Virus record (IMG/VR): IMGVR_UViG_3300048573_000442
Reading direction: 5' to 3' (one strand)
Origin: a virus
DNA length: 64,000 nucleotides
Shown here: positions 2,581 through 21,719 of the stretch, piece after piece
Layout of the letters: each line of letters begins with the position of its first letter
Numbering within the stretch: the first letter of the stretch is position 1
Made by a program: the position numbers and the translations under genes
The notes under the pieces: model-generated
The model's database searches: none
Told to the model about the DNA's origin: nothing
What the model saw: only the letters and a program-made list of their open reading frames with translations

Positions 2581-2608
2581 AATTTTCCATATTTAAAATA
2601 TAACAAAG

Positions 2609-2616
2609 TATTTATC
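2609..2616 (-). promoter_or_regulatory. T4-like late promoter (GATAAATA) for terminase
   Basis: NATAAATA about 30 nt upstream of the gp17 ATG; gp55 is encoded in the window. Confidence 0.6.
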
Positions 2617-2673
2617 AACTACCTAACAGCTAAAGGCTGTTAAGGTTGCTGTTAGGTTTTCTTGCTTATAATT

Positions 2674-2681
2674 TATAAATA
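2674..2681 (+). promoter_or_regulatory. T4 late promoter TATAAATA driving the LRR array
   Basis: Exact T4 late consensus 43 nt upstream of the first array ATG. Confidence 0.75.
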
Positions 2682-2723
2682 AGGAAATGCAATAATTTAC
2701 TGACGCTTGCCACGGGGAATAAA

Positions 2724-3368
2724 ATGAAATTAAAACAATTATTTGAATCTACATCTAAACAAGAAGTTGAAACAGTCTTAAACAGGTACGGGATTGAGAA
2801 CTACACCATCAATGATGACTTGTCCGTGGATGTCGATGGAGATGTTGATCTAAGTGAAAATAAGTTGAGTTCGATTCCTGTCAATTTTGGGAAGATCAGT
2901 GGAATTTTTGACTGCTCTAACAACCTGCTAACCTCTTTACAAGGAGCACCAAGAGAAATAGGCGGGTATTTCGGTTGCTCTGGTAACCAATTAGCCTCCT
3001 TACAAGGAGCACCAAGAGAAGTCGGTGGGGGCTTTAAATGCTCTGATAACAAATTAGCTTCTTTGCAGGGTGCGCCAAAAGAAGTAGGCGGGCATTTTTG
3101 GTGCTATCATAACCAATTAACCTCTTTGCAAGGCGGGCCAAGAGAAGTTAATGAGGGTTTTGATTGCTGTTATAACAAACTGACATCTTTACTGGGCGCG
3201 CCTAGGGTAGTAGGCTGGCATTTCAATTGCTTTAAAAACCGATTAACCTCTTTGCAAGGTGCACCTAGAGAAGTAGGCGGGGAGTTTAATTGCCGTTTTA
3301 ATCCAAAATTGACCTCACTTGACGGAATTGGCAATGTTGCCGGACAAATTAAAAGCGACCTATCATGA
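2724..3368 (+). CDS. LRR-like 21-aa repeat protein 1 (7 repeats)
   Basis: MKLKQLFES leader, NYTINDDLSVDVDGDVDL N-cap, xFxCxxN repeats, LDGIGNVAG C-cap. Confidence 0.9.
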   Translation: MKLKQLFESTSKQEVETVLNRYGIENYTINDDLSVDVDGDVDLSENKLSSIPVNFGKISGIFDCSNNLLTSLQGAPREIGGYFGCSGNQLASLQGAPREVGGGFKCSDNKLASLQGAPKEVGGHFWCYHNQLTSLQGGPREVNEGFDCCYNKLTSLLGAPRVVGWHFNCFKNRLTSLQGAPREVGGEFNCRFNPKLTSLDGIGNVAGQIKSDLS

Positions 3369-4018
3369 AATTAAAACAATTATTCGGATTCTCGTTTTCG
3401 ACCTCAAAAGAAAAAGTTGAAAACGTTCTTAAGAAATACAAAATCACAAACTATACAATCAATGACGATCTGTCTGTTGATGTGGATGAGGATATAGATT
3501 TTCGTGGTTCAAATTTAAAAAGATTTCCAATCAAATTTGGCAAAATAAAGGGAAATTTTAATTGTTCTAACACCCAGTTGGAAACGCTTAAAGATGGCCC
3601 GAATGAAGTCAGCGAAAACTTTTACTGTCACAATAACCAATTAGTATCTTTGGAAGGTGCGCCAAAAGAAGTGGGCGGGAGTTTTTGGTGCATGAAGAAC
3701 GAATTGATTTCTTTGAACGGTTCACCAAGGGAAGTAGGCGGGGATTTCAACTGCGACTTAAACCGACTAGCATCCTTACGGGGGGCCGCGCGTGAAGTGG
3801 GTGGCGCATTTGGCTGCGAGAGTAATGAACTGCAGACTTTGGAAGGATGCCCTCGCATTGTAGGCGGGGATTTTTATTGCTCTAAAAACAAATTAACATC
3901 TTTGCACGGCGCACCTAGAGAAATTGGCGGGGATTTTAATTGCCGTTTTAATCCAAATTTGACCTCACTTGACGGGATCGGCAATGTTGCCGGAGAAATT
4001 GAAAGCGATCTATCATGA
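3365..4018 (+). CDS. LRR-like repeat protein 2 (7 repeats, most divergent)
   Basis: Same caps and repeat; MKLKQLFG leader. Confidence 0.9.
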   Translation: MKLKQLFGFSFSTSKEKVENVLKKYKITNYTINDDLSVDVDEDIDFRGSNLKRFPIKFGKIKGNFNCSNTQLETLKDGPNEVSENFYCHNNQLVSLEGAPKEVGGSFWCMKNELISLNGSPREVGGDFNCDLNRLASLRGAAREVGGAFGCESNELQTLEGCPRIVGGDFYCSKNKLTSLHGAPREIGGDFNCRFNPNLTSLDGIGNVAGEIESDLS

Positions 4019-4788
4019 AATTAAAACAGCTGTTTGAATCAGTGTCTAAACAAGATGTGGAATCCATCTTAAAGAAATACGGGATTAAGAACTATACCAT
4101 CAATGATGACATGTCAGTCGATGTTGATGGGGACGTGAAGCTAAATAATAATCACTTAAGTTCGATTCCTGTTAATTTTGGGAAAGTAAGTGGGCATTTT
4201 TGGTGTCATAAAAACCAATTAACTTCTTTACAAGGTACACCTAAAGAAGTCGGTAAGGATTTTGATTGTTCTCACAACCAATTAACTTCTTTACAAGGTG
4301 CTCCTGGGGAAGTTGGTGGCGGCTGTTTTAATTGCCACAACAACAAATTGACCTCTTTACAAGGTGCACCTAGAGAAATTGGTGGAAGTTTTTGGTGCGC
4401 TGATAACAAATTAACTTCTTTACAAGGCGGGCCAAGAGAAGTCGATGGGAGTTTTTCGTGCGCTAGTAACCAATTGTCCTCTTTACAAGGCGCTCCAAGA
4501 GAAGTTGGTGGGCATTTTTATTGCTCTAAAAACAAATTGACCTCTTTACAAGGTGCTCCTAGAGAAGTTGATGGGCATTTTTATTGCTCTAACAACCAAT
4601 TAACTTCTTTGCAAGGTGCTTCAAGAGAAGTTGGCGGAGGGTTTTGGTGCCATAATAACCAATTAACTTCTCTACAAGGCGCACCTAAGGAAGTCGGTGG
4701 GGATTTTAATTGCTCTAACAATCCGAATTTGGCATCACTTGACGGAATCGGCAATGTTGCCGGGCACATTTTTAGCAATCTATCATGA
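4015..4788 (+). CDS. LRR-like repeat protein 3 (9 repeats)
   Basis: Same caps and repeat. Confidence 0.9.
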   Translation: MKLKQLFESVSKQDVESILKKYGIKNYTINDDMSVDVDGDVKLNNNHLSSIPVNFGKVSGHFWCHKNQLTSLQGTPKEVGKDFDCSHNQLTSLQGAPGEVGGGCFNCHNNKLTSLQGAPREIGGSFWCADNKLTSLQGGPREVDGSFSCASNQLSSLQGAPREVGGHFYCSKNKLTSLQGAPREVDGHFYCSNNQLTSLQGASREVGGGFWCHNNQLTSLQGAPKEVGGDFNCSNNPNLASLDGIGNVAGHIFSNLS

Positions 4789-5492
4789 AATTAAGGCAAT
4801 TATTCGAATCTACATCTAAGCAAGATGTAGAATCCATCTTAAACAAATATAAAATAGCAAACTACGCTATCAATGATGACTTATCAGTAGATGTCGATGG
4901 AGATGTGGATCTGAGTAATAAGAAGTTAAGTTCGATTCCTGTTAATTTTGGGAAAGTAAGCGGAATTTTTGACTGCTCTAACAACCTGCTAACCTCTTTA
5001 CAAGGCGCACCTAGGGAAGTTGGTGGTGATTTTAATTGCTCTTATAGCCAGTTAACTTCCTTACAGGGTGCTCCTACCATAGCCTATGGTAATTTTATTT
5101 GCTCTGCCAACCAATTAACATCTTTGGAAAGGGCACCTAGGGAAGTAGGTGGGGATTTTATTTGCTCTAATAACCGTTTGATTTCTTTAAAGGGTGCACC
5201 TAGAGAAGTTGGAGGGCATTTCAGTTGCGCGCGTGCCAAACTGACATCTTTAGAAGGTGCACCTAGAAAAGTAGGTGGGAATTTTTGGTGTGTTAGCAAC
5301 CAATTGCCCTCTTTACAAGGCGGGCCTAAAGAAGTTGGTGGGGATTTTAACTGTAATAGTAACAAATTGACCTCTTTACAAGGCGCACCAAGAGAAGTTG
5401 GTGGGAGTTTTTGGTGCCGCAACAATCCGAATTTGACCTCACTTAACGGAATCAGTAATGTTGGCGGAGACGTTTTTAGCGACATAAAATGA
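4785..5492 (+). CDS. LRR-like repeat protein 4 (8 repeats)
   Basis: Same caps and repeat. Confidence 0.9.
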   Translation: MKLRQLFESTSKQDVESILNKYKIANYAINDDLSVDVDGDVDLSNKKLSSIPVNFGKVSGIFDCSNNLLTSLQGAPREVGGDFNCSYSQLTSLQGAPTIAYGNFICSANQLTSLERAPREVGGDFICSNNRLISLKGAPREVGGHFSCARAKLTSLEGAPRKVGGNFWCVSNQLPSLQGGPKEVGGDFNCNSNKLTSLQGAPREVGGSFWCRNNPNLTSLNGISNVGGDVFSDIK

Positions 5493-6265
5493 AATTAAAA
5501 CAATTATTTGAATCAGTTGCAGTCCCTAAACAAAAAGTTGAATCCATCCTTAAAAAATACAGGATCGAGAATTACGCCATTAATGATGACTTGTCAGTAG
5601 ATGTCGATGGAGATGTGGATCTAAGCTACAAGAAGTTAAGTTCGATTCCTGTCAATTTTGGGAAGGTTAGTGGCAGTTTTTATTGCTCTGACAACAAATT
5701 GACTTCTTTAGAAGGTGCACCGAGAGAAGTCAGTGGGGATTTTGATTGCACTCATAACCAATTAACTTCTTTACAAGGTTCACCTAGAGAAGTAGGCGGG
5801 CATTTTTACTGCTATCATAACCAATTAACTTCTTTACAGGGTTCACCTAGGGAAGTCAGCGGACATTTTTGGTGCTATAGCAACCAATTAACCTCTTTGC
5901 AAGAAGGTCCTAGAGAAGTCGGAGGGAATTTTAATTGCTCTGATAACGAATTGGTAACCATGCAAGGTTCACCTAGGGAAGTAGGCGGGCATTTTAACTG
6001 CTCTACCAACAAATTGACTTCTTTACAAGGTGCACCTAAAGAAGTAGGTGGGGATTTTAGGTGCTCTGGCAACCAATTAACATCTTTGGAAAGGGCGCCT
6101 AGAGAAGTTGGTAAGGATTTTATTTGCTCTGATAACAAATTAACTTCTTTACAAGGCGCACCTAGAGAAGTTGGTGGGCATTTTTTTTGCTACAACAACG
6201 TAAATTTAAAATCACTTGACGGAATCGGTAATGTAGCCGGAGAAATTGAAAGCGACCTATCATGA
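5489..6265 (+). CDS. LRR-like repeat protein 5 (9 repeats)
   Basis: Same caps and repeat. Confidence 0.9.
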   Translation: MKLKQLFESVAVPKQKVESILKKYRIENYAINDDLSVDVDGDVDLSYKKLSSIPVNFGKVSGSFYCSDNKLTSLEGAPREVSGDFDCTHNQLTSLQGSPREVGGHFYCYHNQLTSLQGSPREVSGHFWCYSNQLTSLQEGPREVGGNFNCSDNELVTMQGSPREVGGHFNCSTNKLTSLQGAPKEVGGDFRCSGNQLTSLERAPREVGKDFICSDNKLTSLQGAPREVGGHFFCYNNVNLKSLDGIGNVAGEIESDLS

Positions 6266-6969
6266 AATTAAAACAATTATTTGATTCAACTTCTAGACAA
6301 AAAGTTGAATCTATCCTGAAAAAATATAAAATAACGAACTACGTCATTAACGACGACTTGTCTGTAGATGTCGATGGGGATGTGGATTTGGATAGTAAAC
6401 GCCTAAGTTCGATTCCTGTTAATTTCGGAAAAGTTAGTGGGAGTTTTGATTGCTATAAAAACAAATTGACCTCTTTACAAGGTGTTCCGAGAGAAGTCGG
6501 TAAGGGTTTTGATTGTTCTCATAACCAATTAACATCTTTACAAGGTGCGCCTGGGGAAGTTGGTAGGGATTTTAACTGCTCTCATAACCAATTAACTTCT
6601 TTACAAGGTTCACCTAGGGAAGTCAACAGACATTTTTGGTGTTCTCACAACCAATTAACTTCTTTGCAAGGAGCACCTAGAGAAGTAGGTGAGCTTTTTA
6701 CTTGCGCTAATAACCAATTAACATCCTTACAAGGTGCACCTAGAGAAGTCGGTGGAGAGTTTTACTGCTATGGTAACAAATTGACCTCTTTGCAGGGTGC
6801 TCCTAGAGAAGTTGGCGGAGGGTTTTGGTGCAATAATAACGAATTGACCTCTTTGCAGGGTGCTCCTAGAGAAGTTGGTAAGGATTTTTGGTGTGGCAAA
6901 AATCCGAATTTGAAATCCCTTGACGGAATCGGCAATGTTGCCGGAGAAATTAAAAGCGACATAAAATGA
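6262..6969 (+). CDS. LRR-like repeat protein 6 (8 repeats)
   Basis: Same caps and repeat; MKLKQLFD leader. Confidence 0.9.
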   Translation: MKLKQLFDSTSRQKVESILKKYKITNYVINDDLSVDVDGDVDLDSKRLSSIPVNFGKVSGSFDCYKNKLTSLQGVPREVGKGFDCSHNQLTSLQGAPGEVGRDFNCSHNQLTSLQGSPREVNRHFWCSHNQLTSLQGAPREVGELFTCANNQLTSLQGAPREVGGEFYCYGNKLTSLQGAPREVGGGFWCNNNELTSLQGAPREVGKDFWCGKNPNLKSLDGIGNVAGEIKSDIK

Positions 6970-7622
6970 AATTAAAACAACTATTTGAATCAGTTGCAGC
7001 CCCTAAACAAGAAGTTGAATCTATCCTAAAGAAATATGGTATCGAAAACTACACCATAAATGATGACTTGTCAGTAGATGTCGATGGAGATGTGGATCTA
7101 AGTAATAAACACCTAAGTTCATTTCCAGTGAATTTCGGAAAAGTTAGCGGGAGTTTTGATTGCTCTGACAACAAATTGGCAACTTTAGAAGGCGCACCAA
7201 GAGAAGTCGGCGGGGATTTTATCTGCTCTTCCAACAAATTGGCCTCTCTAAAAGGAGCGCCTAGAGAAGTCAGCGAGATTTTTAATTGCTCTTATAACCA
7301 ATTAACTTCTTTGCAAGGAGCGCCTAGAGAAGTGGATATAGATTTCATTTGCTCTTATAACAAATTAGCTTCTCTAAACGGCTCGCCAAGGGAAGTCGGT
7401 GGGAGCTTTTATTGCTTTAAAAACCAATTAACATCGCTAAAAGGAGCTCCTTGGGAAGTCAGCGAGAATTTTGATTGCTCTGACAACAAATTGACGACTT
7501 TAGAAGGCGCACCTAGAGAAATAGGTGGAAATTTTTATTGTTATGATAACCCAGATTTAAAATCCCTTGATGGAATCGGTAACGACAGCGTTGCCGGAGA
7601 AATTGGAAGCGACATAAAATGA
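6966..7622 (+). CDS. LRR-like repeat protein 7 (7 repeats)
   Basis: Same caps and repeat. Confidence 0.9.
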   Translation: MKLKQLFESVAAPKQEVESILKKYGIENYTINDDLSVDVDGDVDLSNKHLSSFPVNFGKVSGSFDCSDNKLATLEGAPREVGGDFICSSNKLASLKGAPREVSEIFNCSYNQLTSLQGAPREVDIDFICSYNKLASLNGSPREVGGSFYCFKNQLTSLKGAPWEVSENFDCSDNKLTTLEGAPREIGGNFYCYDNPDLKSLDGIGNDSVAGEIGSDIK

Positions 7623-8515
7623 AATTAAAACAATTATTTGAATCAACTTCTGGACAAGAAGTTGAATCTATCCTAAAGAAATACGGTATCGAAAACTACA
7701 CCATAAATGATGACTTGTCAGTAGATGTCGATGGAGATGTGGAGTTAAATAATAATAGCTTAAGTTCAATTCCTGTCAATTTTGGGAAAGTTAGCGGCAG
7801 TTTTAATTGCCTTTTTAACAAACTGGCTTCTTTGCAAGGCGCACCAAGAGAAGTCGATGGAGATTTTATTTGCTCTCATAACCAATTAACTTCTTTACAA
7901 GGCGCGCCAAGAGAAGTCGGAGGGAATTTTTATTGCTATCACAACAAATTAACTTCTTTGCAAGGTGCTCCTGGGGAAGTTGGTGGAAATTTTTATTGCT
8001 ATCGCAACAAATTAACCTCTTTGCAAGGTGCATCTAGGGAAGTGGGTGGGAGTTTTGATTGCTCTGAAAACCAATTAACATCCTTACAAGGTGCACCGAG
8101 AGAAGTAGGCGGGGCTTTTAATTGCTCTGGCAACCAATTAACATCCCTACAAGGTGCACCTAGGGAAGTAGGTGGAAGTTTTTATTGTTATCACAACAAA
8201 TTAACTTCTTTACAAGGCGCATCTAGGGAAGTTGGTAGGGTTTTTGATTGCTCTTATAATGAATTAATGTCCTTACAAGGTGCACCTAGAGAAGTGGGTG
8301 GGAATTTTGTTTGCTCTCATAACCAATTAACTTCTTTGCAGGGTGCACCGAGAGAAGTTGGCGGGAGTTTTTATTGCGGTAGCAATCATTTGTCCTCTTT
8401 GCAAGGAGCTCCTAGGGAAGTTGGTGGAAATTTTTATTGCTCCAAAAATTCAAATTTGTCCTCACTTGACGGGATCGGCAATGTAGCCGGAGAAATTGAA
8501 AGCGACATTAAATGA
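7619..8515 (+). CDS. LRR-like repeat protein 8 (11 repeats)
   Basis: Same caps and repeat; 298 aa = 235 + 3x21. Confidence 0.9.
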   Translation: MKLKQLFESTSGQEVESILKKYGIENYTINDDLSVDVDGDVELNNNSLSSIPVNFGKVSGSFNCLFNKLASLQGAPREVDGDFICSHNQLTSLQGAPREVGGNFYCYHNKLTSLQGAPGEVGGNFYCYRNKLTSLQGASREVGGSFDCSENQLTSLQGAPREVGGAFNCSGNQLTSLQGAPREVGGSFYCYHNKLTSLQGASREVGRVFDCSYNELMSLQGAPREVGGNFVCSHNQLTSLQGAPREVGGSFYCGSNHLSSLQGAPREVGGNFYCSKNSNLSSLDGIGNVAGEIESDIK

Positions 8516-8548
8516 AATTAAAACTGTCAGTTGCAACCTCTAAACATG
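8512..8548 (+). pseudogene. remnant 5' end of a ninth LRR array unit
   Basis: ATGA overlap then ATGAAATTAAAAC-TG-TCAGTTGCAACCTCTAAACA, matching the unit 5/7 start (atgaaattaaaacaattatttgaatcagttgcagtccctaaaca) with a deletion; no repeats follow. Confidence 0.65.
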
Positions 8549-8557
8549 TTCAGCAAC

Positions 8558-9406
8558 TTATTTCATGTGTTCCGAAAGGTCTTGCCAACTTTTAATTTCG
8601 GGATTAGTTTCTACCAGCTTACGCATTTTGTCCCACACGTTTTGCGGGATAACAATTGCGCCGCCGTCAAACCATACTTCCTGATGTTTCTCTGAATGTC
8701 TAAGAGTTGCTGGAGTACACGCATGCATTTGCAGTTTAGAAGGTGAGTATGCGTCTAAAATTGTTTCTAAAAAATGTTTACGGAAATCGTCGTTCTGCAA
8801 CAGTTCCGAATAATCACTTTGTTGTATTCGTTCGTATGCTTCGCTATCTACATCGCGTATTTGCACATCGAACTGTTCCAGCGATTCAAATGGGTCAGTT
8901 CCTGTGTCCAGTCCTGTATTCAGACCTGTCTCTACAAAGGCAGCCAAATAATCATTCATTTCATTAATTGGTTCCAAATTTCCAAAAAGATCAATAATCT
9001 TTTCCCAGATGTCAAGATCGCCGACTTCTCCGATTTTTGCGTTTTTAACCGGGAGCACAATGTATCTCTCATCGCCAAAACCCTTAGCGTAGGCTAAATT
9101 TGTAGTGCATATCATTGATTGACTTCGCTTAGGAAAATCTTTCATCTCTGGGTGATTATCGAAAATGGTTGTGTACCAATTGGATGTATTTTGGCTTTTG
9201 CGTTTTGTCTTTGTCAAATCAACATAGGAAAAACCTAAACCAGCTCTCATGCCCCGATAGAATGGCTGCTGTTCTTTGAGCATCCAGAATAAATCTGGGC
9301 AATGTTCGTTCAAGTAAAAGGTGATAGGACGAGTAGTAAGCGGTTCAAACACCTGTTTAAGTGAACCTTCTGCTTTTGCTTCTAAGAATGTTTTAAATGT
9401 TTTCAT
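8558..9406 (-). CDS. putative ADP-ribosyltransferase-like protein (R-S-E type), capsid-targeting-like leader
   Basis: MKTFKTFLEA; FYRGM, SMICTT..YAKGFG, QEVWF motifs. Confidence 0.55.
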   Translation of the reverse strand: MKTFKTFLEAKAEGSLKQVFEPLTTRPITFYLNEHCPDLFWMLKEQQPFYRGMRAGLGFSYVDLTKTKRKSQNTSNWYTTIFDNHPEMKDFPKRSQSMICTTNLAYAKGFGDERYIVLPVKNAKIGEVGDLDIWEKIIDLFGNLEPINEMNDYLAAFVETGLNTGLDTGTDPFESLEQFDVQIRDVDSEAYERIQQSDYSELLQNDDFRKHFLETILDAYSPSKLQMHACTPATLRHSEKHQEVWFDGGAIVIPQNVWDKMRKLVETNPEIKSWQDLSEHMK

Positions 9407-10247
9407 TTTTCATAGCTTCCGATAAATCTTGCCAATTTCTAATTCGTTTTTTGCTTGATCTATACATACTTCTCATTTTGTTCCATTCGTCTAATGGAAT
9501 AATAATGGCACCAGTATCAAACCACACCTCATGCCCTATATAAGTCAGTTCTTCGATTTCGCCAAATGCGGACCCATCAATCCGCAGCACTTTCGGCGAA
9601 TACGCCTTCAAAATTGATTCCAAGAACAAATTTGTAAATTCGGTCTTCTCTAATAGGGACGAATATTTGCTGTTTTTAAGTCTTTGAAAAACTTGGCTAT
9701 TTACATCTTTTATTTGGCGGTCAAATTCCTGCAGAAGCCCAAACGAGCATTTTTCTGTTTTTAGTCCACATTGAATGATTCCGGAAAAGAAATCATTCAT
9801 TGTTTTTATTTCTACTTCATCCCCAAAAATTTTAATCCAAAGGTCCCAAATGTCCGACACGTAAATTTCTGCTACTTTAGCATTTTTAACTGGCAGGATA
9901 GCATATACCTGACTTCCAAATCCATGTGCATAATCGAAATCGGTGGTACAAATCATAGACTCGCTTCTTTTCGGGAGATGACTCATTTCAGGATGATTGT
10001 CAAATATTTCCGTGTACCAATTAGAAGAGTTTTGGCTTTTACGTTTTGTCCCTGTCAAATCAACAAATGAAACACTTAGACCTGATCTCATGCCACGGTA
10101 CAGAACTGCTTTCTCCGTCAGCGCCCAGAACGTATCGGGGCAATACTTATTTAGGTAGTAGGCAGCTGGATGTTCCGTAAGGGGCTGATACACTAGCGAA
10201 GCAGAACCTTCTGCTTTTGCTTCTAGGAATGTTTTAAACGTTTTCAT
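9393..10247 (-). CDS. putative ART-like paralog
   Basis: MKTFKTFLEA; LYRGM, SMICTT..YAHGFG, HEVWF. Confidence 0.55.
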   Translation of the reverse strand: MKTFKTFLEAKAEGSASLVYQPLTEHPAAYYLNKYCPDTFWALTEKAVLYRGMRSGLSVSFVDLTGTKRKSQNSSNWYTEIFDNHPEMSHLPKRSESMICTTDFDYAHGFGSQVYAILPVKNAKVAEIYVSDIWDLWIKIFGDEVEIKTMNDFFSGIIQCGLKTEKCSFGLLQEFDRQIKDVNSQVFQRLKNSKYSSLLEKTEFTNLFLESILKAYSPKVLRIDGSAFGEIEELTYIGHEVWFDTGAIIIPLDEWNKMRSMYRSSKKRIRNWQDLSEAMKNENI

Positions 10248-10825
10248 AGTACGGTTCCTTTAACAATTGAATTAATTGCGTTTATAACAGTTGAATGTTG
10301 AACAACTTCAAAATGGTTTGTCGCTAATAGCAATTCATCCGTTGGCTTTACGCATCTTTGGGATTTTACTGATACAACTCCATCATTAGCATTAGCCATA
10401 AACGGCGATCCTCCGCCAGTAGTTACTACATTTAGCCAACGGCATGGAGGAATTATATTTCTCGAGTATGCAACTGAATTGCTATAAGGTGCTAAATCTT
10501 TCATGACTAGCAATTTTGGAAATGCATAACGTAAAAAGGCAGCAGCGTTATGCCCGCCGAACGGTGTTGATATCGTAATAATTCCGACAACATTTGGGTC
10601 TTCGCAGGCGATACGATGTGCCAAAATTCCACCCAAACTATGTGCAACAATAAAGTATTTTTGGGAAAGTTCTTCATGCTTAATAGCGTTATGCACGCTG
10701 TCGATTGATTGCGTGCTGTCGTATTCAGCAACAATTGGAATATGATCTTGTATCTGGGAAATAATGTGATTAAACACAATTCCAGAGCTATTAAATCCGT
10801 GAATGTAAAGAATTGTGGGTTTCAT
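10244..10825 (-). CDS. alpha/beta hydrolase (lipase/esterase-like)
   Basis: YIHGF oxyanion loop, AHSLGG nucleophile elbow, ISTPFGG, NDGVV, NHF. Confidence 0.85.
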   Translation of the reverse strand: MKPTILYIHGFNSSGIVFNHIISQIQDHIPIVAEYDSTQSIDSVHNAIKHEELSQKYFIVAHSLGGILAHRIACEDPNVVGIITISTPFGGHNAAAFLRYAFPKLLVMKDLAPYSNSVAYSRNIIPPCRWLNVVTTGGGSPFMANANDGVVSVKSQRCVKPTDELLLATNHFEVVQHSTVINAINSIVKGTVL

Positions 10826-11072
10826 TTAGGATGTTATGTTCGGGTATTGTTAATTTGCCAGCAGAGATTAGATCTCTTCTAATGACTATTAGTCTAGTCA
10901 ATTCTTTAGACAAATGGGATATTTGATCTGAAGTTGATTGGCGATTATATTTTTGAACGTATTTGTTAATCGCATCTTGAGTCATATAGTTAATGACATC
11001 GGAGTAATGATTTATCCGTTCGCTATCAACCACAAAAGCGGTTTTAACTTTTTCAGTAATAATCTTTGACAT
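10791..11072 (-). CDS. hypothetical protein
   Basis: 93-aa ORF overlapping both neighbours in a dense operon. Confidence 0.55.
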   Translation of the reverse strand: MSKIITEKVKTAFVVDSERINHYSDVINYMTQDAINKYVQKYNRQSTSDQISHLSKELTRLIVIRRDLISAGKLTIPEHNILNETHNSLHSRI

Positions 11073-11835
11073 GTTTCTGTAAATCTTGCCAATCGTCTAT
11101 ATTGATAATGACTGCGCCTTTATCAAACCAAACTTCCCCCTGAATTATTTTCGAGGATTCAAGTGTTGCGGTAGTTTTTGCCAGTAGGCCAGTTTTTCTA
11201 GGAGAATATGCATCAAATAATTCTTTAAGAAAATCGCTTGAAATGACACGTTTATATTTTTCGGCAAAACGCAATCTTTCAATAATTTCACCGTTTTTAT
11301 TTTTTAGGGCTTCATCGAATTTTACCAATGCATTAAAACAGGATTCATCTTCTTCATCATAATCAAGCAGGTTTTTTAAAAAATAATTTGCGTCGATCAG
11401 TGAAAGCGATTTCCCGAATAGGGTTGTCCTAAGATCCCACATGTCCTGTTCGCCAACTAAACCTATTTTTGAACCGTTTACAGGAATCACTGCAAATACT
11501 GATCCAAACGCACTTGCATAACCTTTAGATGTGGAGCAAATTATAGATTTGCTACGTTTGGGAAAGTCCTGCATTTCGGGGTGATTATCAAAAATTTCAG
11601 TATAAAAATTATTGGTGTTTTGGCTTTTCCTGGCCGTCCTTGCCAAATTGACAAAAGCAGGAGGATGATCCCATTGTAGCTTCCCGAATCCCCGATAAAA
11701 TGGTTTATCTTGCTCGATCATCCATAAAGAATCAGAACAATGCCTTTTTAGAAATTCGTGTATGTGATCAATTGGTTCAAATACCTGTTTAGGCGAATCT
11801 TCCGCTTTTGCTTCTAAGAAAGTTTTAAATTTCAT
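11053..11835 (-). CDS. putative ART-like paralog
   Basis: MKFKTFLEA; FYRGF, IICSTS..YASAFG, QGEVWF. Confidence 0.55.
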   Translation of the reverse strand: MKFKTFLEAKAEDSPKQVFEPIDHIHEFLKRHCSDSLWMIEQDKPFYRGFGKLQWDHPPAFVNLARTARKSQNTNNFYTEIFDNHPEMQDFPKRSKSIICSTSKGYASAFGSVFAVIPVNGSKIGLVGEQDMWDLRTTLFGKSLSLIDANYFLKNLLDYDEEDESCFNALVKFDEALKNKNGEIIERLRFAEKYKRVISSDFLKELFDAYSPRKTGLLAKTTATLESSKIIQGEVWFDKGAVIINIDDWQDLQKHVKDYY

Positions 11836-12808
11836 TTTTCAATTTCTCACTGATAAAGTGGGCGACAGATTTAGTCACTAAAATCACAGGACCGCCAATC
11901 CATAATTCTGTCGTACAGTGAAGGTCAAATAAACTAGAGGGCATATTAGCCGTAGTAAAAACTGTATGCTCTGTTGCCTCCGCAGAATATGCTTCCCAAA
12001 TATGATCCAAGAAATGATCCAAGCATTCCGTCGGTGCATTATTAAAAACACTCATGAAAAGCGCAACTGCCGGTTTATTCCTATCCTTCAGTAGTCTGTC
12101 GAATTCTTGAAAACTTTCAAGCGTCTGTTTCAATTTTAAAGCTTCAAACAAATGATTAAAGTGTTCGATATTCCGGTGGGTCCCGAAAAGATTGATTCGG
12201 GTTTGCCACATATCATCATTATTCACTGCACCCATTTTTACTCCATTAAATGGAATAACAACAATATCCTCTCCTTTTGCAGTACTTCCATAACCACTTG
12301 CAATTTTCGGACATGTAGTTGCTATGAAAGAGGCGCTGCGTTTGGGGAAATGGGCCCTTTTTGGATTAGCATCCAAAAGCATATTATAGAAGTTGCCAGC
12401 GCTAATGCTCTTCCTAGAAGTCAACGTCGGATCTGAAACAACTGCACCTGTTGCTAATAGATCGGCCTTCGGGCTTTGGCCGGAAATGCCTCGCCATATA
12501 AACTTTGCGTCCTTTAGAAACGGGACAAAATCTGACGCCTTTTGGCGAATGAGATCTAAGGTTTCATCAAGGGGTTTAGGTTCATAAACAGGCTTTGATT
12601 CCTTTAAGAACTCTGAGAATCTTAAACCTTCTTTTAAGCCCATCATTCGTTTAGTTATTGCCATTCTAAGTGCCCAATGTCTAGGATCATTTTTATCATA
12701 GTCGTATTCAGAACTGATAATTTCTTCAGCTTTATCCCAAAGATGTTCTGCTCTATCAAGAGGTATTTTTGCTTTTTTAGCTAAATGTTTTAGTGCAGTA
12801 AGTGGCAT
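11825..12808 (-). CDS. putative ART-like paralog with extra N-terminal helical domain
   Basis: About 60-aa basic N-domain, internal LRFSEFLKE, then IWRGI, FIATT..IASGYG, TELWI. Confidence 0.5.
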   Translation of the reverse strand: MPLTALKHLAKKAKIPLDRAEHLWDKAEEIISSEYDYDKNDPRHWALRMAITKRMMGLKEGLRFSEFLKESKPVYEPKPLDETLDLIRQKASDFVPFLKDAKFIWRGISGQSPKADLLATGAVVSDPTLTSRKSISAGNFYNMLLDANPKRAHFPKRSASFIATTCPKIASGYGSTAKGEDIVVIPFNGVKMGAVNNDDMWQTRINLFGTHRNIEHFNHLFEALKLKQTLESFQEFDRLLKDRNKPAVALFMSVFNNAPTECLDHFLDHIWEAYSAEATEHTVFTTANMPSSLFDLHCTTELWIGGPVILVTKSVAHFISEKLKNEI

Positions 12809-12809
12809 T

Positions 12810-13466
12810 TTAAAAGTCAGGAAATTGTGGAGGTGGGGCGAAATTTGACGTGTATCTTGCTATTCCACTAGTAAACCTGAAATCGTCAATATATCCAGTA
12901 AAATATTTTGAAACAGATGTATATGCACCAAGTTGGAAATCTCCAGTTGCAAAATCAGTGTTTGCAACTGATGCCACCAAAATGCCATTTTGGTACAATC
13001 GAGTATTTGGGGAATCCAAAACGACCGCAACATGAACCCATTCATTTATTGGCAATGGAGCATTTGCTGTCGCCAAAACGGGAACGACATTTCGTTTGCC
13101 TATAACAAGATTTCCGCTTATTGTTTCCAATGTCAGCCCGCTACCGCTAACAGAAAAAAGAATCCCGACGTCAGAGGCAACGGTTTTATAAAGCCAGAAT
13201 TCAATCGTAAACTTGCTACCAAATAATGACATCGTATTTGACGGTCTAGTCAAATACGATGAGCCGTTTAAATATAGGGACGCTGCGCCAAATTGTTTTT
13301 CTGAGCTACTAATAACTGGGGCCCCAATGCCCGTCCAAACTCCACTTGCCGAATCACCAAAGTTTGAATCAAAGCGTAATAGGCTGATTACGTTAGTCCA
13401 AAATGGATCTGGTGGTTGTGCAGTTGATTGGTAAATTGCGCGGATGAGAACTGAAATGTCTAGCAT
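12810..13466 (-). CDS. LamG/concanavalin A-like lectin domain protein
   Basis: DPFWTNVISLLRFD, FTIEFW, EWVHVAVV, FTGYIDDFRFTSGIARYTSNF; start moved to the internal Met at 13466. Confidence 0.8.
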   Translation of the reverse strand: MLDISVLIRAIYQSTAQPPDPFWTNVISLLRFDSNFGDSASGVWTGIGAPVISSSEKQFGAASLYLNGSSYLTRPSNTMSLFGSKFTIEFWLYKTVASDVGILFSVSGSGLTLETISGNLVIGKRNVVPVLATANAPLPINEWVHVAVVLDSPNTRLYQNGILVASVANTDFATGDFQLGAYTSVSKYFTGYIDDFRFTSGIARYTSNFAPPPQFPDF

Positions 13467-13473
13467 AATTAGT

Positions 13474-13956
13474 TTATTCTTTATTAAAGTCGTCCCAAAT
13501 TTCTTTATCTGCTTTTCTAGCAGGCCCGCCAACAATAAACGAATTCACTCGAGCCATCGCCCATTGTGCTTGGGCAACACCCGGTCTATGCCCAGTTCTC
13601 CAAGCTGCAGAACCCTTATTGAACACTCGCCGTAAAATAGATACGGGAATTCCTGTTTTTTCAGACTTATTCTTGAGCGCAACGTCAATATTTGAAGACT
13701 CGCCAAACAGCTCTTCATACTTTTCAGTATGTTCGCTTTTTGGTATAGATTTTCCTGCCGACTTCAACTGTTTCTTATATTTCCTATCAGCGGTCCAGTT
13801 GTCAGGATAAGCTTTTGGATCTTTATGGTCAAGACGTTTAAACTTATCAATTTCTTTTGACATCTCTTTTTTCAGGGGAGGTTTGTTTTTTGCCCCCTTA
13901 AAATCCAAATACTTTGGATTTGTCTCAGAAATGAACTGTTTAAACGTTATCGTCAT
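13474..13956 (-). CDS. conserved phage protein (DUF5824-like), capsid-targeting-like leader
   Basis: MTITFKQFISE; ALKNKSEKTGIP..L..VFNKG.AAWRTGHRPG...QWA.ARVNSF motif recalled from T4-like phages and giant viruses. Confidence 0.6.
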   Translation of the reverse strand: MTITFKQFISETNPKYLDFKGAKNKPPLKKEMSKEIDKFKRLDHKDPKAYPDNWTADRKYKKQLKSAGKSIPKSEHTEKYEELFGESSNIDVALKNKSEKTGIPVSILRRVFNKGSAAWRTGHRPGVAQAQWAMARVNSFIVGGPARKADKEIWDDFNKE

Positions 13957-13958
13957 GA

Positions 13959-14213
13959 TTATTTTGCTGGCTTAACAACGTCTTTAAACACTACGCCTTC
14001 AGAACCATCCCATTCGCCGACGCCGATAGTCTCCTTGCGCTTATACGGCTTAGTTCCAATGAAAGCATTGCAGATGTCCTGGTCTCCATCAAACCAAGCA
14101 CCTGGCTGATATTTGCGAACGGCAGTTTTCCATGAACTATAAGTCGTGTAAACAGTTTCCCCCATATGGTTCTTTGCTTCTTTAAGATTTACTAGTTGTT
14201 TTAGTAATTGCAT
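13959..14213 (-). CDS. hypothetical protein
   Basis: MQLLKQLVNLKE leader; GATAAATA upstream. Confidence 0.7.
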   Translation of the reverse strand: MQLLKQLVNLKEAKNHMGETVYTTYSSWKTAVRKYQPGAWFDGDQDICNAFIGTKPYKRKETIGVGEWDGSEGVVFKDVVKPAK

Positions 14214-14242
14214 TTTTGTGCCTCTATTGGTTAAATGTATAT

Positions 14243-14539
14243 TTATCTCTTGTCGTAATTAACGTGTATTACTTTTGCTTTAATTACGCCAAGGCCCTGA
14301 AGTATATGTTTTTTCAACCGCAATGTCAACTTTTCAGACAGGTCTTTTTGAAAGCCTAGATCCCTAGGTCTGTCTGCACAATCCGTCCTGAACTCTATAA
14401 CAGTTTGTGGCCCCTCATCTAATAAATGGATGCTAAAGATCTTACAAGCAATGAGTTCTTCTTCAGCAATGTGGTGCAGCATGTTTTCCCATTTTTTAAG
14501 GTGTTCTTCACGCTTAAGGAATTCTTTAAATGTCTTCAT
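14243..14539 (-). CDS. hypothetical protein
   Basis: MKTFKEFLKREE leader; ATGA-coupled to upstream gene. Confidence 0.7.
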   Translation of the reverse strand: MKTFKEFLKREEHLKKWENMLHHIAEEELIACKIFSIHLLDEGPQTVIEFRTDCADRPRDLGFQKDLSEKLTLRLKKHILQGLGVIKAKVIHVNYDKR

Positions 14540-15186
14540 AAAATTTCTGCCAATCTTGGTTTAATGACATCATAAAATAGATTGCTTAAAGTATCTATTT
14601 TGTAATACTGCTTGCATTTCAAATGAATTTCATTGCCGTTATCGATGCATTCTTCAAGCTCTTCATTTACATTCCATCTAGCGTGTGAAAATTTTTTAAC
14701 TAGCATGTCTGCTGCCATAGTCTGACGCTGATCATAGTTGTATTGGTTTTCTTTATCAGCTGCGAATATTTTGCCAGATAAATAGGCTGAAGAGCCGTAT
14801 GCGTCTTTAAATGCGTCCTTGCCCGTATCAGCATTACAAACCCATTGAAATTCCCCAATTGGGAAAATAGCAAATACCTTTCCGTATTGTCTAGCATCGT
14901 TTTGTTGACCAGTAACAAACATCCAATTTCGAATAGGCTCGCCGACTAAATCAACAAAAAAATCATTCATTTTATCATGCAAGTACGTGCTTGAATCCCT
15001 AGGCCCGCCACGTAGCCTAAAATCCCTGATCTCCCAATCGGCAGACCCTCCAGATTCAGAGCCGCGATACATCAATTTGTTTCCGCCGGTTCCTTTTAGT
15101 TGCTTAAATAAAAATGAGCAGTCTTCTTCAAATCGTTTAAGATCAAAAGATTTTTGTTCGTTTAGGAAAGTTTTAAATGTTTTCAT
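14536..15186 (-). CDS. putative ART-like paralog
   Basis: Start moved to MKTFKTFLNE (15186); MYRGS, MFVTG...ARQYG, NEIHL. Confidence 0.45.
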   Translation of the reverse strand: MKTFKTFLNEQKSFDLKRFEEDCSFLFKQLKGTGGNKLMYRGSESGGSADWEIRDFRLRGGPRDSSTYLHDKMNDFFVDLVGEPIRNWMFVTGQQNDARQYGKVFAIFPIGEFQWVCNADTGKDAFKDAYGSSAYLSGKIFAADKENQYNYDQRQTMAADMLVKKFSHARWNVNEELEECIDNGNEIHLKCKQYYKIDTLSNLFYDVIKPRLAEIL

Positions 15187-15880
15187 ATTTAACCCATGGG
15201 TCGTTGATGACAATAGTTCCGTCTTCAGCAATCATAAAATTGCTGCTGTGTAAATCGTTTTGGAACCCGTTCTTGCGCCCAATTTGGACGACATCGAATA
15301 TAGTAGAGGCCAATTTAACTAATTGCTGTTGGCCCATATGGAGTATGAGGTACTCCAAACCTGATGAAATCTCTAGTGCTGTTCTCGTAAAAAACATTTT
15401 GCCTTTTCTTGCAAACAGCGACTGATTATCAATTTCTAAGGCAGCTGGATGTTCTATATAGGTCGTAACAGCTTTAAGATATTCGATCTTTTTGTTGTTA
15501 AATGCGTCTACCTCTGTTGATAAGAACCCAAGTGCGATGCCAGTGTGTTCTGATATAGAACCCATCTCAAAAAGGCGTTCAGATTTTGCTATTAGCACCT
15601 TGGTGCCAGTCTCTGAGTTAACAATTGTTTCCGGGGCGCCAATATCAGGGATAAATTGGTTATTTTTATTTGCCAAACAGTATTTTAGCCACTTGACAAA
15701 TACGCTTGACCTCGAATCGTTTAGTGGACCGATCGCCAACAACACTTCATGTTTTTCATTCATCCAGACCGTCTTATCATATCCACTAGCTTCCATGAAA
15801 TAGCCGCGATCCCTCATTAGATGAAACAACCAAGAACTATCATCAGGTGAAAAATCAGATTCAAATAGGCGATGTTTCAT
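15173..15880 (-). CDS. protein kinase-like (T7 gp0.7-like) 1
   Basis: Start MKHRLFE (ATGA-coupled); ASGYDK, YC..NKNNQFIPDI, DLHSSNFM, INDPW. Confidence 0.75.
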   Translation of the reverse strand: MKHRLFESDFSPDDSSWLFHLMRDRGYFMEASGYDKTVWMNEKHEVLLAIGPLNDSRSSVFVKWLKYCLANKNNQFIPDIGAPETIVNSETGTKVLIAKSERLFEMGSISEHTGIALGFLSTEVDAFNNKKIEYLKAVTTYIEHPAALEIDNQSLFARKGKMFFTRTALEISSGLEYLILHMGQQQLVKLASTIFDVVQIGRKNGFQNDLHSSNFMIAEDGTIVINDPWVKYENI

Positions 15881-16605
15881 TTGTACCATCCATCGGCTTT
15901 CTTTACAAGTACCTCTAATGGGATGATATTTGGCGACAAATATTTCTCAGCCTCTTCTCGCATCTGTTTTAAATATCTTTTCCCTACAGGATTTTTCAAA
16001 GGCTCACTAAAAAACCCCTGAACAGATTTAAAAATTTTCAAGATGGCTTTGTCGTCAAGGGCGCCATCATTTTCAACCTGCTTAAAAAAATCAACTTTCG
16101 CCTGTAGAAACTTTGCGTTTTCCAAATTGACTTCACTGACTTTGCGAATAAATTCTGCGTCAACTTTTCGTCCAGAAATATCAGTTCGAGATTTTGCCCT
16201 TTTAAGAGATGTTTCCAAGCTTGCGTGAACAAACACTACTCCTACATCATATCCTATAGATTCAAGAATGCCTATGCGATGCAATATTTGGGAAACATTA
16301 TTCGAAGTGCTATCAACAAACAGTGGCAGCATCGAATTCATATAGCCTGTTAAAGATTTTTTTGTGATTTTAATCGATGAATCTCTTAATTCGGGCCACG
16401 TTTCAGAGGATACTTCCTTATCAAGTTTAAAGGCCATGAATTCGGTTGCAATGTCAGTATTGACTACTTTTGGGGAAATTTGCCCCCTTAGGTTCCTGAC
16501 TGTGTAACTCTTGCCGGCACCTGGCAAGCCAATCACGAAAACAGCTTTAAGAATGCCAGCATCATTAATGCCTTCTGTTATGTAGGTTTTGAAATTTGTT
16601 GTCAT
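15877..16605 (-). CDS. P-loop kinase (AAA_33/zeta-toxin-like)
   Basis: VFVIGLPGAGKS Walker A, VNTD, FVDST, R..SR lid; MTTNFKTYITE leader. Confidence 0.75.
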   Translation of the reverse strand: MTTNFKTYITEGINDAGILKAVFVIGLPGAGKSYTVRNLRGQISPKVVNTDIATEFMAFKLDKEVSSETWPELRDSSIKITKKSLTGYMNSMLPLFVDSTSNNVSQILHRIGILESIGYDVGVVFVHASLETSLKRAKSRTDISGRKVDAEFIRKVSEVNLENAKFLQAKVDFFKQVENDGALDDKAILKIFKSVQGFFSEPLKNPVGKRYLKQMREEAEKYLSPNIIPLEVLVKKADGWYK

Positions 16606-16609
16606 AATT

Positions 16610-17290
16610 TTAAAAGGATGCCCATGGATCGGTGATAACTAAAGTGCCGTCTGAAGCAATCATAAAGTTACCGGAATGTAAATCTAGAAAGCCGCTGCTA
16701 GGAGTTGCATTAATAATATCTATTAAAGTTCCTAGCAAAAAGTCAAAATCCTCGACGCTTAACACCAATAGCGCCATGCTTTCGGTAATATCCCCACTTG
16801 CTTCTAATCTAGCTTTTGCGTCCGCAATGACTTTTGATTTTAGGTCTTTTTGTAAAATGCTAGTAGAGCCAATAGCACTAGTGCAAGCTTTCACAAGTTC
16901 ATGAATTGCTTCTCGTATCTGGCTGAGTTCGGAAGAGACTTCAAACAAGCGTTCGATGTTGGCGACGATAAACTTCTCACCGCTTATAGTAAGTGGTTTT
17001 GAAAAACTAATATTTGGTAAATGGGGATTGGATGAATGTTGAAAACAAAAACTTACCCACTTTTTGAAATTGGCTGTTTCCCTATAGCTTTCGTCATGTT
17101 GGATTATTTTGACGTTATGTGTTTTTGGATTAACAAATGCTGCTTTAAAAGCGCCAGCTCTCAAAAATTTGTAACCTAAGCCTTTCATATGTTCTAAAAG
17201 AATGCTGCTTCTTCTAGATTCATCATTAAAATCCTGTTCTTCTGTGCTGATGGACTCGACCAAATATTTTTTGAAATTGCGCGCCATCAT
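16610..17290 (-). CDS. protein kinase-like (T7 gp0.7-like) 2
   Basis: MARNFKKYLVE; RAGAFKAAF, VK, FC.QHSSNPHLPNI, DLHSGNFM, ITDPW. Confidence 0.8.
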   Translation of the reverse strand: MMARNFKKYLVESISTEEQDFNDESRRSSILLEHMKGLGYKFLRAGAFKAAFVNPKTHNVKIIQHDESYRETANFKKWVSFCFQHSSNPHLPNISFSKPLTISGEKFIVANIERLFEVSSELSQIREAIHELVKACTSAIGSTSILQKDLKSKVIADAKARLEASGDITESMALLVLSVEDFDFLLGTLIDIINATPSSGFLDLHSGNFMIASDGTLVITDPWASF

Positions 17291-17985
17291 TATGCCCATG
17301 GGTCAGTTATGACTATTGTTCCGTCTTCGCCAAGCATGAAATTTCCTGGATGCAAATCGAGAATTGAGTTACTAGGTGAAAAATCAATAATGTCTATTAT
17401 GGTCCCTATCAAAGAATCGATATCTTCAACACTTAATAGCAGTAATGAATGAGCATCATTTTCAAATTCGTCATTGGAGCCAAAATTTTCAAGAGAGCTT
17501 TTTATTTCAGCTATTAATTCGTCTCGGGGTTTATTTTTGCCGCCGCTCGAAGCTCTTGATGTTTCGCATAAATCCGCAATTTCAGTCAACGCGAAACCGA
17601 TAGAAACAATACTAGAACTGTCTATCGAAAATAGTCTTTCAATGGTGGCAATCTGAAACACATGCTTCGTGCCATCTTCACCTCCTATTTTTAACGGGCG
17701 ATCAAGTTTTATAATCGGGAGATGCGGGTTGTTCTTATGTTGTTTGCAAAAATCTATCCAGCGAGTAAAAGTACTAAATGAAGCTGGATTATTCTTGTAC
17801 AAAATTATTTTTGTCGAGCTAGAATCCATATACGCAGCTTTTTCAACCCCACTGCCGAGAAATTTGAACCCGTTTAGAACCATATATTTGTGCAAAGCAA
17901 AAGCACGTTCGCGATCAGCGAAACTCCCCGATCTCAAATACTTGGGGGCTTCATGGCTTTCGGCTAGAAAATGTTTAAAGTTCAT
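17290..17985 (-). CDS. protein kinase-like (T7 gp0.7-like) 3
   Basis: Start moved to MNFKHFLAE; LGSGVEKAAY, FCKQHKNNPHLP, DLHPGNFM, ITDPW. Confidence 0.8.
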   Translation of the reverse strand: MNFKHFLAESHEAPKYLRSGSFADRERAFALHKYMVLNGFKFLGSGVEKAAYMDSSSTKIILYKNNPASFSTFTRWIDFCKQHKNNPHLPIIKLDRPLKIGGEDGTKHVFQIATIERLFSIDSSSIVSIGFALTEIADLCETSRASSGGKNKPRDELIAEIKSSLENFGSNDEFENDAHSLLLLSVEDIDSLIGTIIDIIDFSPSNSILDLHPGNFMLGEDGTIVITDPWA

Positions 17986-18028
17986 TTTAATGGGAATGTA
18001 ACATTCAGTTAAGTTTGCGCTATCCACT

Positions 18029-18928: not shown

Positions 18929-18931
18929 AAT

Positions 18932-19857: not shown

Positions 19858-19859
19858 AA

Positions 19860-21582: not shown

Positions 21583-21607
21583 AATAATTCCTAAGACTAA
21601 TAAGAAG

Positions 21608-21615
21608 TATTTATG
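21608..21615 (-). promoter_or_regulatory. late promoter (CATAAATA)
   Basis: NATAAATA 26 nt upstream of 21582. Confidence 0.6.
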
Positions 21616-21653
21616 GCAGACGTAACAATTTGGGCATCCTAACCGGAAATGAA

Positions 21654-21681
21654 TAAAGGCTACTTTAAAAGTAGCCTTTAT
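21654..21681. terminator. hairpin terminator after tail tube gene
   Basis: taaaggctactt-taa-aagtagccttta inverted repeat. Confidence 0.6.
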
Positions 21682-21719
21682 CTTTAACTGATAACGAGTT
21701 GAACCCGTTATCTTACAGC

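Follow-up and report, generated by a model that had tools for sequence, protein, structure and literature searches.

What would a phage do with a tandem family of repeat proteins in which the scaffold is nearly invariant and the variation is concentrated at a few positions of each unit? The question is raised by a 64,000-nucleotide stretch of DNA from the IMG/VR virus record IMGVR_UViG_3300048573_000442 (the window, by which we mean this whole stretch), in which eight genes for leucine-rich repeat (LRR) proteins stand in tandem at 2724-8515 and two further copies lie among virion genes. The source is a jumbo phage whose structural core is of the T4 type; it is uncultured and known solely from freshwater metagenomes, and the window DNA recurs in at least 24 freshwater metagenome runs. 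Our results showed that the LRR units vary at four positions, which according to the structural model can fairly safely be taken to form a protein-binding surface, the family being a germline repertoire of binders. As a whole, we read the locus as a binder repertoire that would be made late in infection, packaged in the capsid and injected with the DNA, and we give this reading a probability of about four in ten.

The LRR array

All eight genes of the array are on the + strand and each overlaps the next by 4 bases (ATGA). The ten LRR genes of the window are as follows.

2724-3368, + strand: LRR paralogue g1, 214 aa, 7 units
3365-4018, + strand: LRR paralogue g2, 217 aa, 7 units; the most diverged copy, with the leader MKLKQLFG
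4015-4788, + strand: LRR paralogue g3, 257 aa, 9 units, one of them of 22 residues; Pfam LRR_4 at 42.6 bits
4785-5492, + strand: LRR paralogue g4, 235 aa, 8 units
5489-6265, + strand: LRR paralogue g5, 258 aa, 9 units
6262-6969, + strand: LRR paralogue g6, 235 aa, 8 units; the copy used for the AlphaFold2 model
6966-7622, + strand: LRR paralogue g7, 218 aa, 7 units
7619-8515, + strand: LRR paralogue g8, 298 aa, 11 units; matches phrog_21719 and phrog_7816, both of 'unknown function'
27089-27550, - strand: outlying LRR paralogue g9, 153 aa, 4 units; 4-base overlap with the upstream virion structural gene
29419-29946, - strand: outlying LRR paralogue g10, 175 aa, 5 units; between neck and virion genes

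The eight paralogues of the array are translationally coupled and make up a single late operon; the two outlying copies are located inside the neck/virion operon. The proteins share one domain order, i.e., a short N-terminal leader, a helical/LRR N-cap, 4-11 units of the form VGGxFxCxxNQLTSLQGAPRE and a conserved C-cap, and they terminate 8-10 residues past this cap. They are single-domain solenoids of 17-32 kDa with an isoelectric point (pI) of 4.6-7.5, and no signal peptide is visible in them. The period of the unit is exactly 21 residues, save in the 22-residue unit of g3. Anchored on the invariant Cys, the array at 2724-8515 contains 66 units (7, 7, 9, 8, 9, 8, 7 and 11 per gene); the first-pass annotation, which a model had made from the letters of this DNA, spoke of 75 repeats, a number that is reached when the 4 + 5 units of g9 and g10 are added.

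The LRR paralogues are old and there was no recent burst. The proportion of synonymous differences (pS) between their N-terminal domains is 0.26-0.86, and all ten retain open frames. When the array was searched for signs that cassettes had recently been exchanged, no 300-nt stretch exceeded 83% identity. DNA conservation in the array is highest at the gene junctions, which consist of C-cap, ATGA overlap and leader codons. Compared with six other junctions, the one at 3305-3384 showed 69-89% identity over 80 nt and up to 100% over 31 nt; the identity over 80 nt was 80-89% at five of the six, which exceeds synonymous-site conservation elsewhere in the array.

Positions at which the units vary

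The unit was numbered V1 G2 G3 x4 F5 x6 C7 x8 x9 N10 Q11 L12 T13 S14 L15 Q16 G17 A18 P19 R20 E21, and N10 was set as the canonical Asn-9, so that unit positions 4, 6, 8 and 9 are the canonical LRR positions 3, 5, 7 and 8. Over the 58 internal units, the Shannon entropy at these four positions was 2.99, 2.89, 2.56 and 3.24 bits, respectively, with 11-14 residue types at each. The remaining positions stayed at or below 1.84 bits, with no variation at all at F5, C7 and L12; position 11 (Q/K) varies as a fifth, weaker site. The first-pass annotation had claimed four variable positions on a near-invariant scaffold, and the per-position entropies (2.6-3.2 against at most 1.84 bits) agree with it, as does the presence in the array of all eight heptads that it quoted (8/8). 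The same positions were also the most variable ones (2.98-3.39 bits) in 589 units of 120 metagenomic homologues, which means that the four-position pattern is a property of the family and no chance feature of the window.

The variable positions use a restricted set of residues. S, N, D, Y, H, G and W account for 80% of the 264 variable-site residues, from which P and Q are absent. As compared to the window proteome, aromatic residues are enriched (28% vs 11%) and so are D+N (29% vs 11%), while aliphatic residues (9% vs 31%) and K+R+E+Q (8% vs 21%) are depleted; the skew has p values of 1e-5 to 1e-18 per class. The strong enrichment covers the aromatic-rich composition with Y, W, H, N and D that had been described from the letters alone, and the same alphabet is found in the 120 distant homologues. 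At the codon level, NAY and NNT predominate at the variable sites.

No correlation between neighbouring repeats was found at positions 4, 6 and 8, and position 9 showed a weak aromatic tendency (p = 0.018). The variable residues therefore form no structural ladder; the stacking of like residues from repeat to repeat, a possibility that we had considered, was not seen at positions 4, 6 and 8. From the restricted alphabet and the uncorrelated neighbours it follows that each paralogue carries a unique mosaic surface. Judged from residue composition, such a mosaic would fit a ligand-binding face and would speak against pure relaxation.

Fold and placement of the variable positions

The AlphaFold2 model of g6, built from a 40-sequence alignment, had a mean predicted local distance difference test score (pLDDT) of 96.1 and a predicted template modelling score (pTM) of 0.89; the leader was its sole low-confidence part, with a mean pLDDT of 61 over the first 10 residues. 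A strand was assigned by DSSP to x4-F5-x6 in each unit of this model. The structural comparison with VIA-align placed YopM, IpaH1.4, IpaH2.5, IpaH7.8 and SspH1 at Z 17.0-17.9, with a root-mean-square deviation of 3.0-3.7 over ~200 residues, or of 3.0-3.2 for YopM, IpaH1.4, IpaH7.8 and SspH1, and several of these IpaH/SspH1/YopM LRR matches were solved in complex with a host protein. In sequence, phmmer against solved structures matched g6 to SspH2 (6.5e-18) and InlJ (4.3e-15), and LTSLQGAPRE aligns with LTSLPxLPxx of SspH2. Pfam LRR_4 scored above its gathering score in four of the eight array genes and slightly under it in two. The core F5-x-C7-x-x-N10-x-L12-x-x-L15 was found in 66/66 units, and the Cys ladder formed by C7, which is present in 66/66 units, is predicted to be buried. 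Based on these fold and sequence matches, the LRR proteins genuinely belong to the short bacterial / cysteine-ladder LRR class.

The earlier proposal that the variable sites are the strand positions of LxxLxLxxN is right as to the canonical positions 3, 5, 7 and 8 and the strand over x4-F5-x6; their exposure is taken from register and geometry. The model fairly safely places the four positions on the concave sheet and the ascending edge, on the basis of strand register, the SspH2 alignment and textbook LRR geometry. With the four positions so placed, each paralogue would offer a different binding surface. The first-pass annotation had also spoken of a protein-binding surface and an antibody-like repertoire. 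It was right about the site of variation, and the binding surface is probable, but the term 'antibody-like' holds only loosely, because nothing points to somatic or programmed diversification and the repertoire is a germline family. The targets that it named, host defence proteins or receptors, are conjectural.

Relatives and distribution

More than 2,700 LRR homologues were scored, many of them on 100-380 kb contigs, with varied N-terminal modules and some dUTPase fusions. No match to the array was found by megablast in 50,697 phage records, and with tblastn the true relatives were confined to two Vibrio phages and uncultured huge phages. The repeats of the cultured Vibrio phage homologues are far more uniform than those of the window, and Vibrio phage VB_VaC_SRILMA (L027:3947-4582) has a single leaderless LRR gene adjoining a DnaB-like helicase gene.

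The closest relative, L003, whose terminase is 89% identical, has two LRR genes in the corresponding position between the same neighbours, versus eight here, and no LRR gene was found within 10 kb of the terminase gene in terminase relatives at 67% identity or less. Another phage contig, L028 (8890-13525), contains at least four tandem LRR genes with the leader MKL(I/T)QLFE, followed by a gene for a 478-aa protein composed of a related repeat module and a GH19 lysozyme domain. In L003 (4539-7507), the terminase frame opens with ~150 residues that by eye resemble a Hint/intein (C...SHN|T) and is preceded by a 405-aa endonuclease-like open reading frame, unlike the window, where the terminase is uninterrupted.

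Literature searches on LRRs in jumbo and huge phages returned nothing on this LRR family, and a survey of 224 jumbo phage genomes did not mention LRRs. To judge from the genes, this appears to be a known scaffold in a new setting, namely a phage, a tandem late operon and a targeting-like leader, which we did not find described in the searchable literature.

Phage setting and late expression

The features of the window that bear on expression and on the head are the following.

589-2580, - strand: large terminase gene
2674-2681, + strand: TATAAATA T4-type late-promoter-like box, 43 nt before the g1 start codon
23648-25486: tail sheath gene
38059-39303: gp23-type major capsid protein gene (Gp23 1.2e-91)
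41445-42059, - strand: T4 gp21-type prohead protease gene (Pfam Peptidase_S77 1.6e-24; phrog_207)
42124-44331: portal gene (phrog_213)

The nearest cultured relatives of the terminase are those of Ralstonia phage RsoM2USA (45% identity), Pseudomonas phage PA5oct (39%) and Xanthomonas phage XacN1 (37%). Both a gp21-type prohead protease and a T4-type head module are thus encoded in the window (Peptidase_S77, Gp23 and portal phrog_213). A homing/HNH endonuclease gene is located at 35340-36845 (phrog_3339 5e-78; phrog_559 2.2e-66), ~1.2 kb downstream of the major capsid gene and among mostly unassigned genes.

All five TATAAATA boxes of the window (5/5) are intergenic, face the next gene and lie 23-75 nt before its start; the other four lie ahead of the genes for the prohead protease and a probable scaffold protein and of two further genes. 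This placement puts the array in the late regulon. The outlying copies g9 and g10 overlap virion genes inside the neck operon. An inverted repeat, AACAGC...GCTGTT, is found at 2625-2655, where the terminase gene and the LRR operon diverge; the late-promoter box follows just downstream of it.

The N-terminal leader

All ten LRR genes begin with MKLKQLFE(S/N), save one G and one D at position 8, and an indel-bearing stretch follows. The capsid-targeting sequence of T4 is MKTYQEFIAE (PMC8442874), in which targeting depends on residues 4 and 7 and cleavage by gp21 at (L/I)-x-E on residues 8 and 10, and with Asp at residue 10 packaging takes place without cleavage (PMC9026906). In MKLKQLFE|S, the hydrophobic L3, L6 and F7 are followed by E8 and L-F-E fits LxE; the leader has one residue fewer than MKTYQEFIAE, and E is missing from two of the ten copies.

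The leader is not restricted to the LRR genes. In 19 of the 72 window genes, the first 13 residues contain the pattern hydrophobic-x-x-hydrophobic-hydrophobic-(x)-E, versus 1.9% of internal windows (p = 7e-17); the pattern spans ~10 unrelated families, including the prohead protease, with examples such as MKTFKTFLE, MTITFKQFISE, MTTNFKTYITE and MNFKHFLAE. The prohead protease carries LIE near its own N-terminus, as in T4. In the model of a neighbouring family (8558-9406; pLDDT 86), leader residues 1-17 are disordered. The leader of homologue P0134 is ~100 residues away from the LRR cap, so that it must be a separable module, and many distant homologues retain the ...LFE(S/N) motif.

The accessory genes with such a leader lie at 8558-26289 and include 8558-9406, 9393-10247, 11053-11835, 13474-13956, 14536-15186, 15877-16605, 17290-17985, 22404-23216 and 25663-26289. 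A paralogous leader-bearing family with invariant YRG and R-S motifs consists of 8558-9406, 9393-10247, 11053-11835, 11825-12808, 18029-18928 and 14536-15186. Its model (8558-9406) had no Foldseek match at E 0.001 or better; a wide fold search gave weak matches of ADP-ribosyltransferase (ART) type (Arr Z 5.5, diphtheria toxin Z 4.0, PARPs ~3), and the Atlas gave a weak match to ART-PolyVal (TM 0.33), so that the family is at most a candidate for an Alt-like ART. The product of 15877-16605 carries the leader and zeta-toxin/AAA_33 kinase-like P-loop domains (Pfam 3.8e-10 and 2.5e-10).

Selection at the variable positions

Among all pairs of internal units, the scaffold had a pS of 0.61, a proportion of non-synonymous differences (pN) of 0.14 and a dN/dS ratio (omega) of 0.12. 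At the four variable sites pN was 0.54, which gives an omega of 1.2 against their own pS and of 0.75 against the scaffold dS. For the positionally orthologous first and last repeats, omega was ~1.0-1.2 at the variable sites and 0.15-0.17 elsewhere, with a saturated dS (N-cap). Overall, dN/dS is ~0.7-1.2 at the variable sites versus 0.12-0.17 at the scaffold. Codon comparison thus puts the 17 scaffold positions of each unit under strong purifying selection, and the variable sites, which the first-pass annotation expected to exceed the scaffold in dN/dS, do so by 6-8x. Its further claim of diversifying selection goes too far: dN/dS is ~0.7-1.2, not above 1, and the synonymous sites are saturated between repeats and between paralogues, and for both reasons positive selection is unproven. 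Values of omega of 2.5-4 among the 'closest' repeat pairs (low scaffold pS bins) were rejected as a selection artefact; the low dS of these pairs is selection on noise, because, with pairs picked by one half of their scaffold codons, the held-out half had a pS of 0.58, versus 0.61 for all pairs.

At short range the variable surfaces are stable. A sister phage, G001, is 99.1% identical over 13 kb, and its g10 orthologue differs at 13/528 bases (2.5%), of which 8 are synonymous and 5 non-synonymous; g10 is no more diverged from G001 than its neighbour gene. Along 28001-41024 of the window the comparison with G001 (L029) is mosaic, several genes having zero differences, and the 27547-31818 block and the gene at 35340-36845 having 1.3-2.5 per 100 bases, a pattern which suggests recent recombination between strains.

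Strain variants were taken from contigs of four freshwater runs (X5, X10, X15 and X22) that aligned to the array at 88% likeness. Among 40 of the 114 differences, the ratio of non-synonymous to synonymous changes was 4:1 in variable codons, 4:9 in scaffold codons and 6:16 in the N-terminal domain. This contrast is a weak trend, in which three of the four variable-site changes are linked (one-sided p ~0.04 by hand calculation). The contigs over 2600-8600 are short and many of them join different paralogues; in one case, seen in three runs, the 396 bases between 6755 and 7152 are passed over. These joints reflect either strain-level rearrangement of the array or assembly/cross-mapping noise.

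What the proteins may do

The preferred reading, a germline binder repertoire that is delivered by the virion, would proceed as follows. The LRR proteins would be made late, and the MKLKQLFE|S leader would tentatively act as a T4-like capsid-targeting sequence by which they enter the prohead. The gp21-type protease would then trim the leader, the LRR proteins would be ejected with the DNA into the next host, and there they would bind host proteins, e.g., defence or sensor proteins. The binding surface is the safer half of this scheme. Capsid packaging and injection, for which the analogy to T4 argues, are tentative and fall somewhat short of an even chance. It is more doubtful, and we would think it on the unlikely side, that about ten or more LRR 'paratopes' are injected before gene expression, each neutralising a different host defence or sensor protein, as a phage version of the injected LRR effectors of Shigella, Salmonella and Yersinia, and that such systems are widespread in uncultured large phages; the latter part is suggested by the more than 2,700 homologues, many of them on 100-380 kb contigs.

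Several observations weigh against this reading. The LRR proteins are acidic to neutral (pI 4.6-7.5), versus the highly basic internal proteins of T4. The leader resembles the T4 sequence by pattern alone, being shorter by one residue and having E directly after the hydrophobic pair, and G or D stands in place of E in two of the ten leaders. As the junction-plus-leader DNA is the best conserved of the array, the leader could owe its conservation to translational coupling or recombination rather than to targeting. The cultured Vibrio phage homologue is leaderless and lies beside a helicase gene. On the side of the binding surface, variable x positions are generic to LRR proteins, and the exposure of the four sites is read from strand register and textbook LRR geometry. 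Positive (DIVERSIFYING) selection at these sites lacks an omega above 1, the rate being roughly neutral, and in g10 only one non-synonymous change separates the 20 variable codons from those of G001, so that 19/20 variable residues are kept.

Among the alternatives, the one that survives best is that the LRR proteins are cytoplasmic, unpackaged binders which act late in the producing cell, where they would block abortive-infection or defence proteins, exclude superinfecting phages or chaperone assembly; the N-terminus would then serve translation or coupling, or be part of the N-cap helix. The lack of a visible signal peptide and the buried Cys ladder are in keeping with a cytoplasmic protein, as is the acidic to neutral pI, unlike that of T4 internal proteins. 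The DNA of the start region is conserved even at synonymous sites, DSSP gives one continuous helix over residues 2-21, and the leaderless homologue of SRILMA is found beside a helicase gene. However, the leader pattern is common to ~10 unrelated families together with the head protease, it stands apart from the LRR cap in P0134 and it is low-confidence or disordered in both models; the array, moreover, has a late promoter, and two copies are among virion genes. On balance, we consider this alternative rather doubtful.

It is unlikely that the LRR proteins are adhesins or decoration on the virion surface (neck, collar or capsid), with variable faces which bind the host envelope or environmental polymers and thereby affect host range. 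The position of g9 and g10 between neck and virion structural genes, with 4-base overlaps, agrees with this, and so do the late array adjoining the terminase gene and the related repeat module fused to a GH19 cell-wall hydrolase in L028. LRR domains have been proposed as host-recognition elements in phage Goslar, and the copy number, 8 here versus 2 in L003, changes as is common for host-range genes. Nevertheless, each protein is a single small solenoid with no recognisable virion-anchoring domain, inspection of the LRR sequences by eye showed no trimerisation or fibre motifs, and the leader is common to enzyme-like cargo (the weakly ART-like family and the zeta-toxin/AAA_33 kinase-like protein), which points inward.

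Absence of any specific binding, with four positions that are simply exposed and unconstrained and an array that is a neutral lineage-specific expansion, is very improbable. The variable-site dN/dS is indistinguishable from 1, and variation at the x positions is, as said, usual in LRR proteins, as neutral drift would have it; but the residue alphabet is strongly non-neutral and the same across 120 distant homologues, ten old paralogues keep open frames and a scaffold dN/dS of 0.12-0.17, and the g10 orthologue conserves its variable residues but one. Programmed variation by a diversity-generating retroelement (DGR) or VLR-like cassette assembly (after the variable lymphocyte receptors, VLRs, of lampreys) is extremely improbable, and both mechanisms were rejected: the dominant NAY and NNT codons and the paralogue-joining metagenome contigs would speak for it, but the repeats are equally different at synonymous scaffold and variable sites with no template/variable pair differing only at adenines, there are no near-identical cassettes (best 300-nt identity 83%), the ten genes are complete, the orthologue is stable in the sister phage, and the joints, which were seen in short contigs at 88% likeness, may be artefacts of assembly or cross-mapping. 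A reverse transcriptase was not encountered in those window genes that were scanned, which was no systematic search for one.

LRR solenoids are major natural recognition scaffolds, and the LRR proteins of phages are essentially uncharacterised. If those of the window are packaged and injected, they would represent a large modular class of pre-made anti-host binders, of which each paralogue would be a probe for a host factor. A regular scaffold with four defined variable positions per 21 residues may also serve as an attractive template for engineered binders.

Comparison with known systems

In delivery, the LRR proteins would correspond to T4 IPI*, which is injected and inhibits a restriction enzyme of the host (PMC3012670), and in recognition mode they would be a phage analogue of the LRR domains of IpaH, SspH and YopM. 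With the internal proteins of T4 they share a short leader of similar pattern, with Glu after a hydrophobic triad, a gp21-type protease in the genome, late expression, and a plastic locus whose gene content varies between relatives. The T4 internal proteins differ in being small and very basic and in having an unrelated fold, and the likeness of the phage leader to theirs is one of pattern, its packaging and cleavage being putative.

The LRR domains of the type III effectors IpaH1.4, IpaH7.8, IpaH9.8, SspH1, SspH2 and YopM have in common with the phage proteins the xxNQLTSLxxxP core, the domain size with a helical N-cap and the 20-22-residue class. Their units are of 20 or 22 residues, versus 21 here, where Cys replaces the second core Leu. 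IpaH and SspH carry a NEL ubiquitin-ligase domain and a type III secretion signal, both of which are missing in the phage LRR proteins, which places the latter outside that family. The genes of these effectors are bacterial, whereas those described here are phage-encoded and in tandem arrays. The effectors reach another cell through an injection device, and the phage proteins would be delivered, if at all, through capsid and tail.

The internalin J of Listeria (InlJ, PDB 3bz5) shares the 21-residue period and has, in each repeat, a buried Cys where a core Leu would otherwise stand. It is an adhesin that is secreted and anchored to the wall, and it has a signal peptide and additional domains, in contrast to the bare solenoids of the phage.

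The VLR is a distant fold match (5uf1, Foldseek E 1e-2). VLRs have constant LRR scaffolds and caps and a varying number of modules, and their variation is concentrated on concave-strand positions, all of which is also found in the phage family. They are, however, assembled somatically from cassettes through gene conversion driven by a cytidine deaminase, and have Cys-knotted LRRNT/LRRCT caps and a stalk. Unlike theirs, the diversity of the phage proteins is inherited, spread over ten fixed complete genes and stable in the sister phage. Finally, in designed binders such as DARPins and repebodies, a consensus scaffold is kept nearly identical and a few surface positions of each repeat are randomised. 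The phage proteins share the consensus scaffold with few varying surface positions, and differ from them in that they are natural, with evolved and fixed surfaces.

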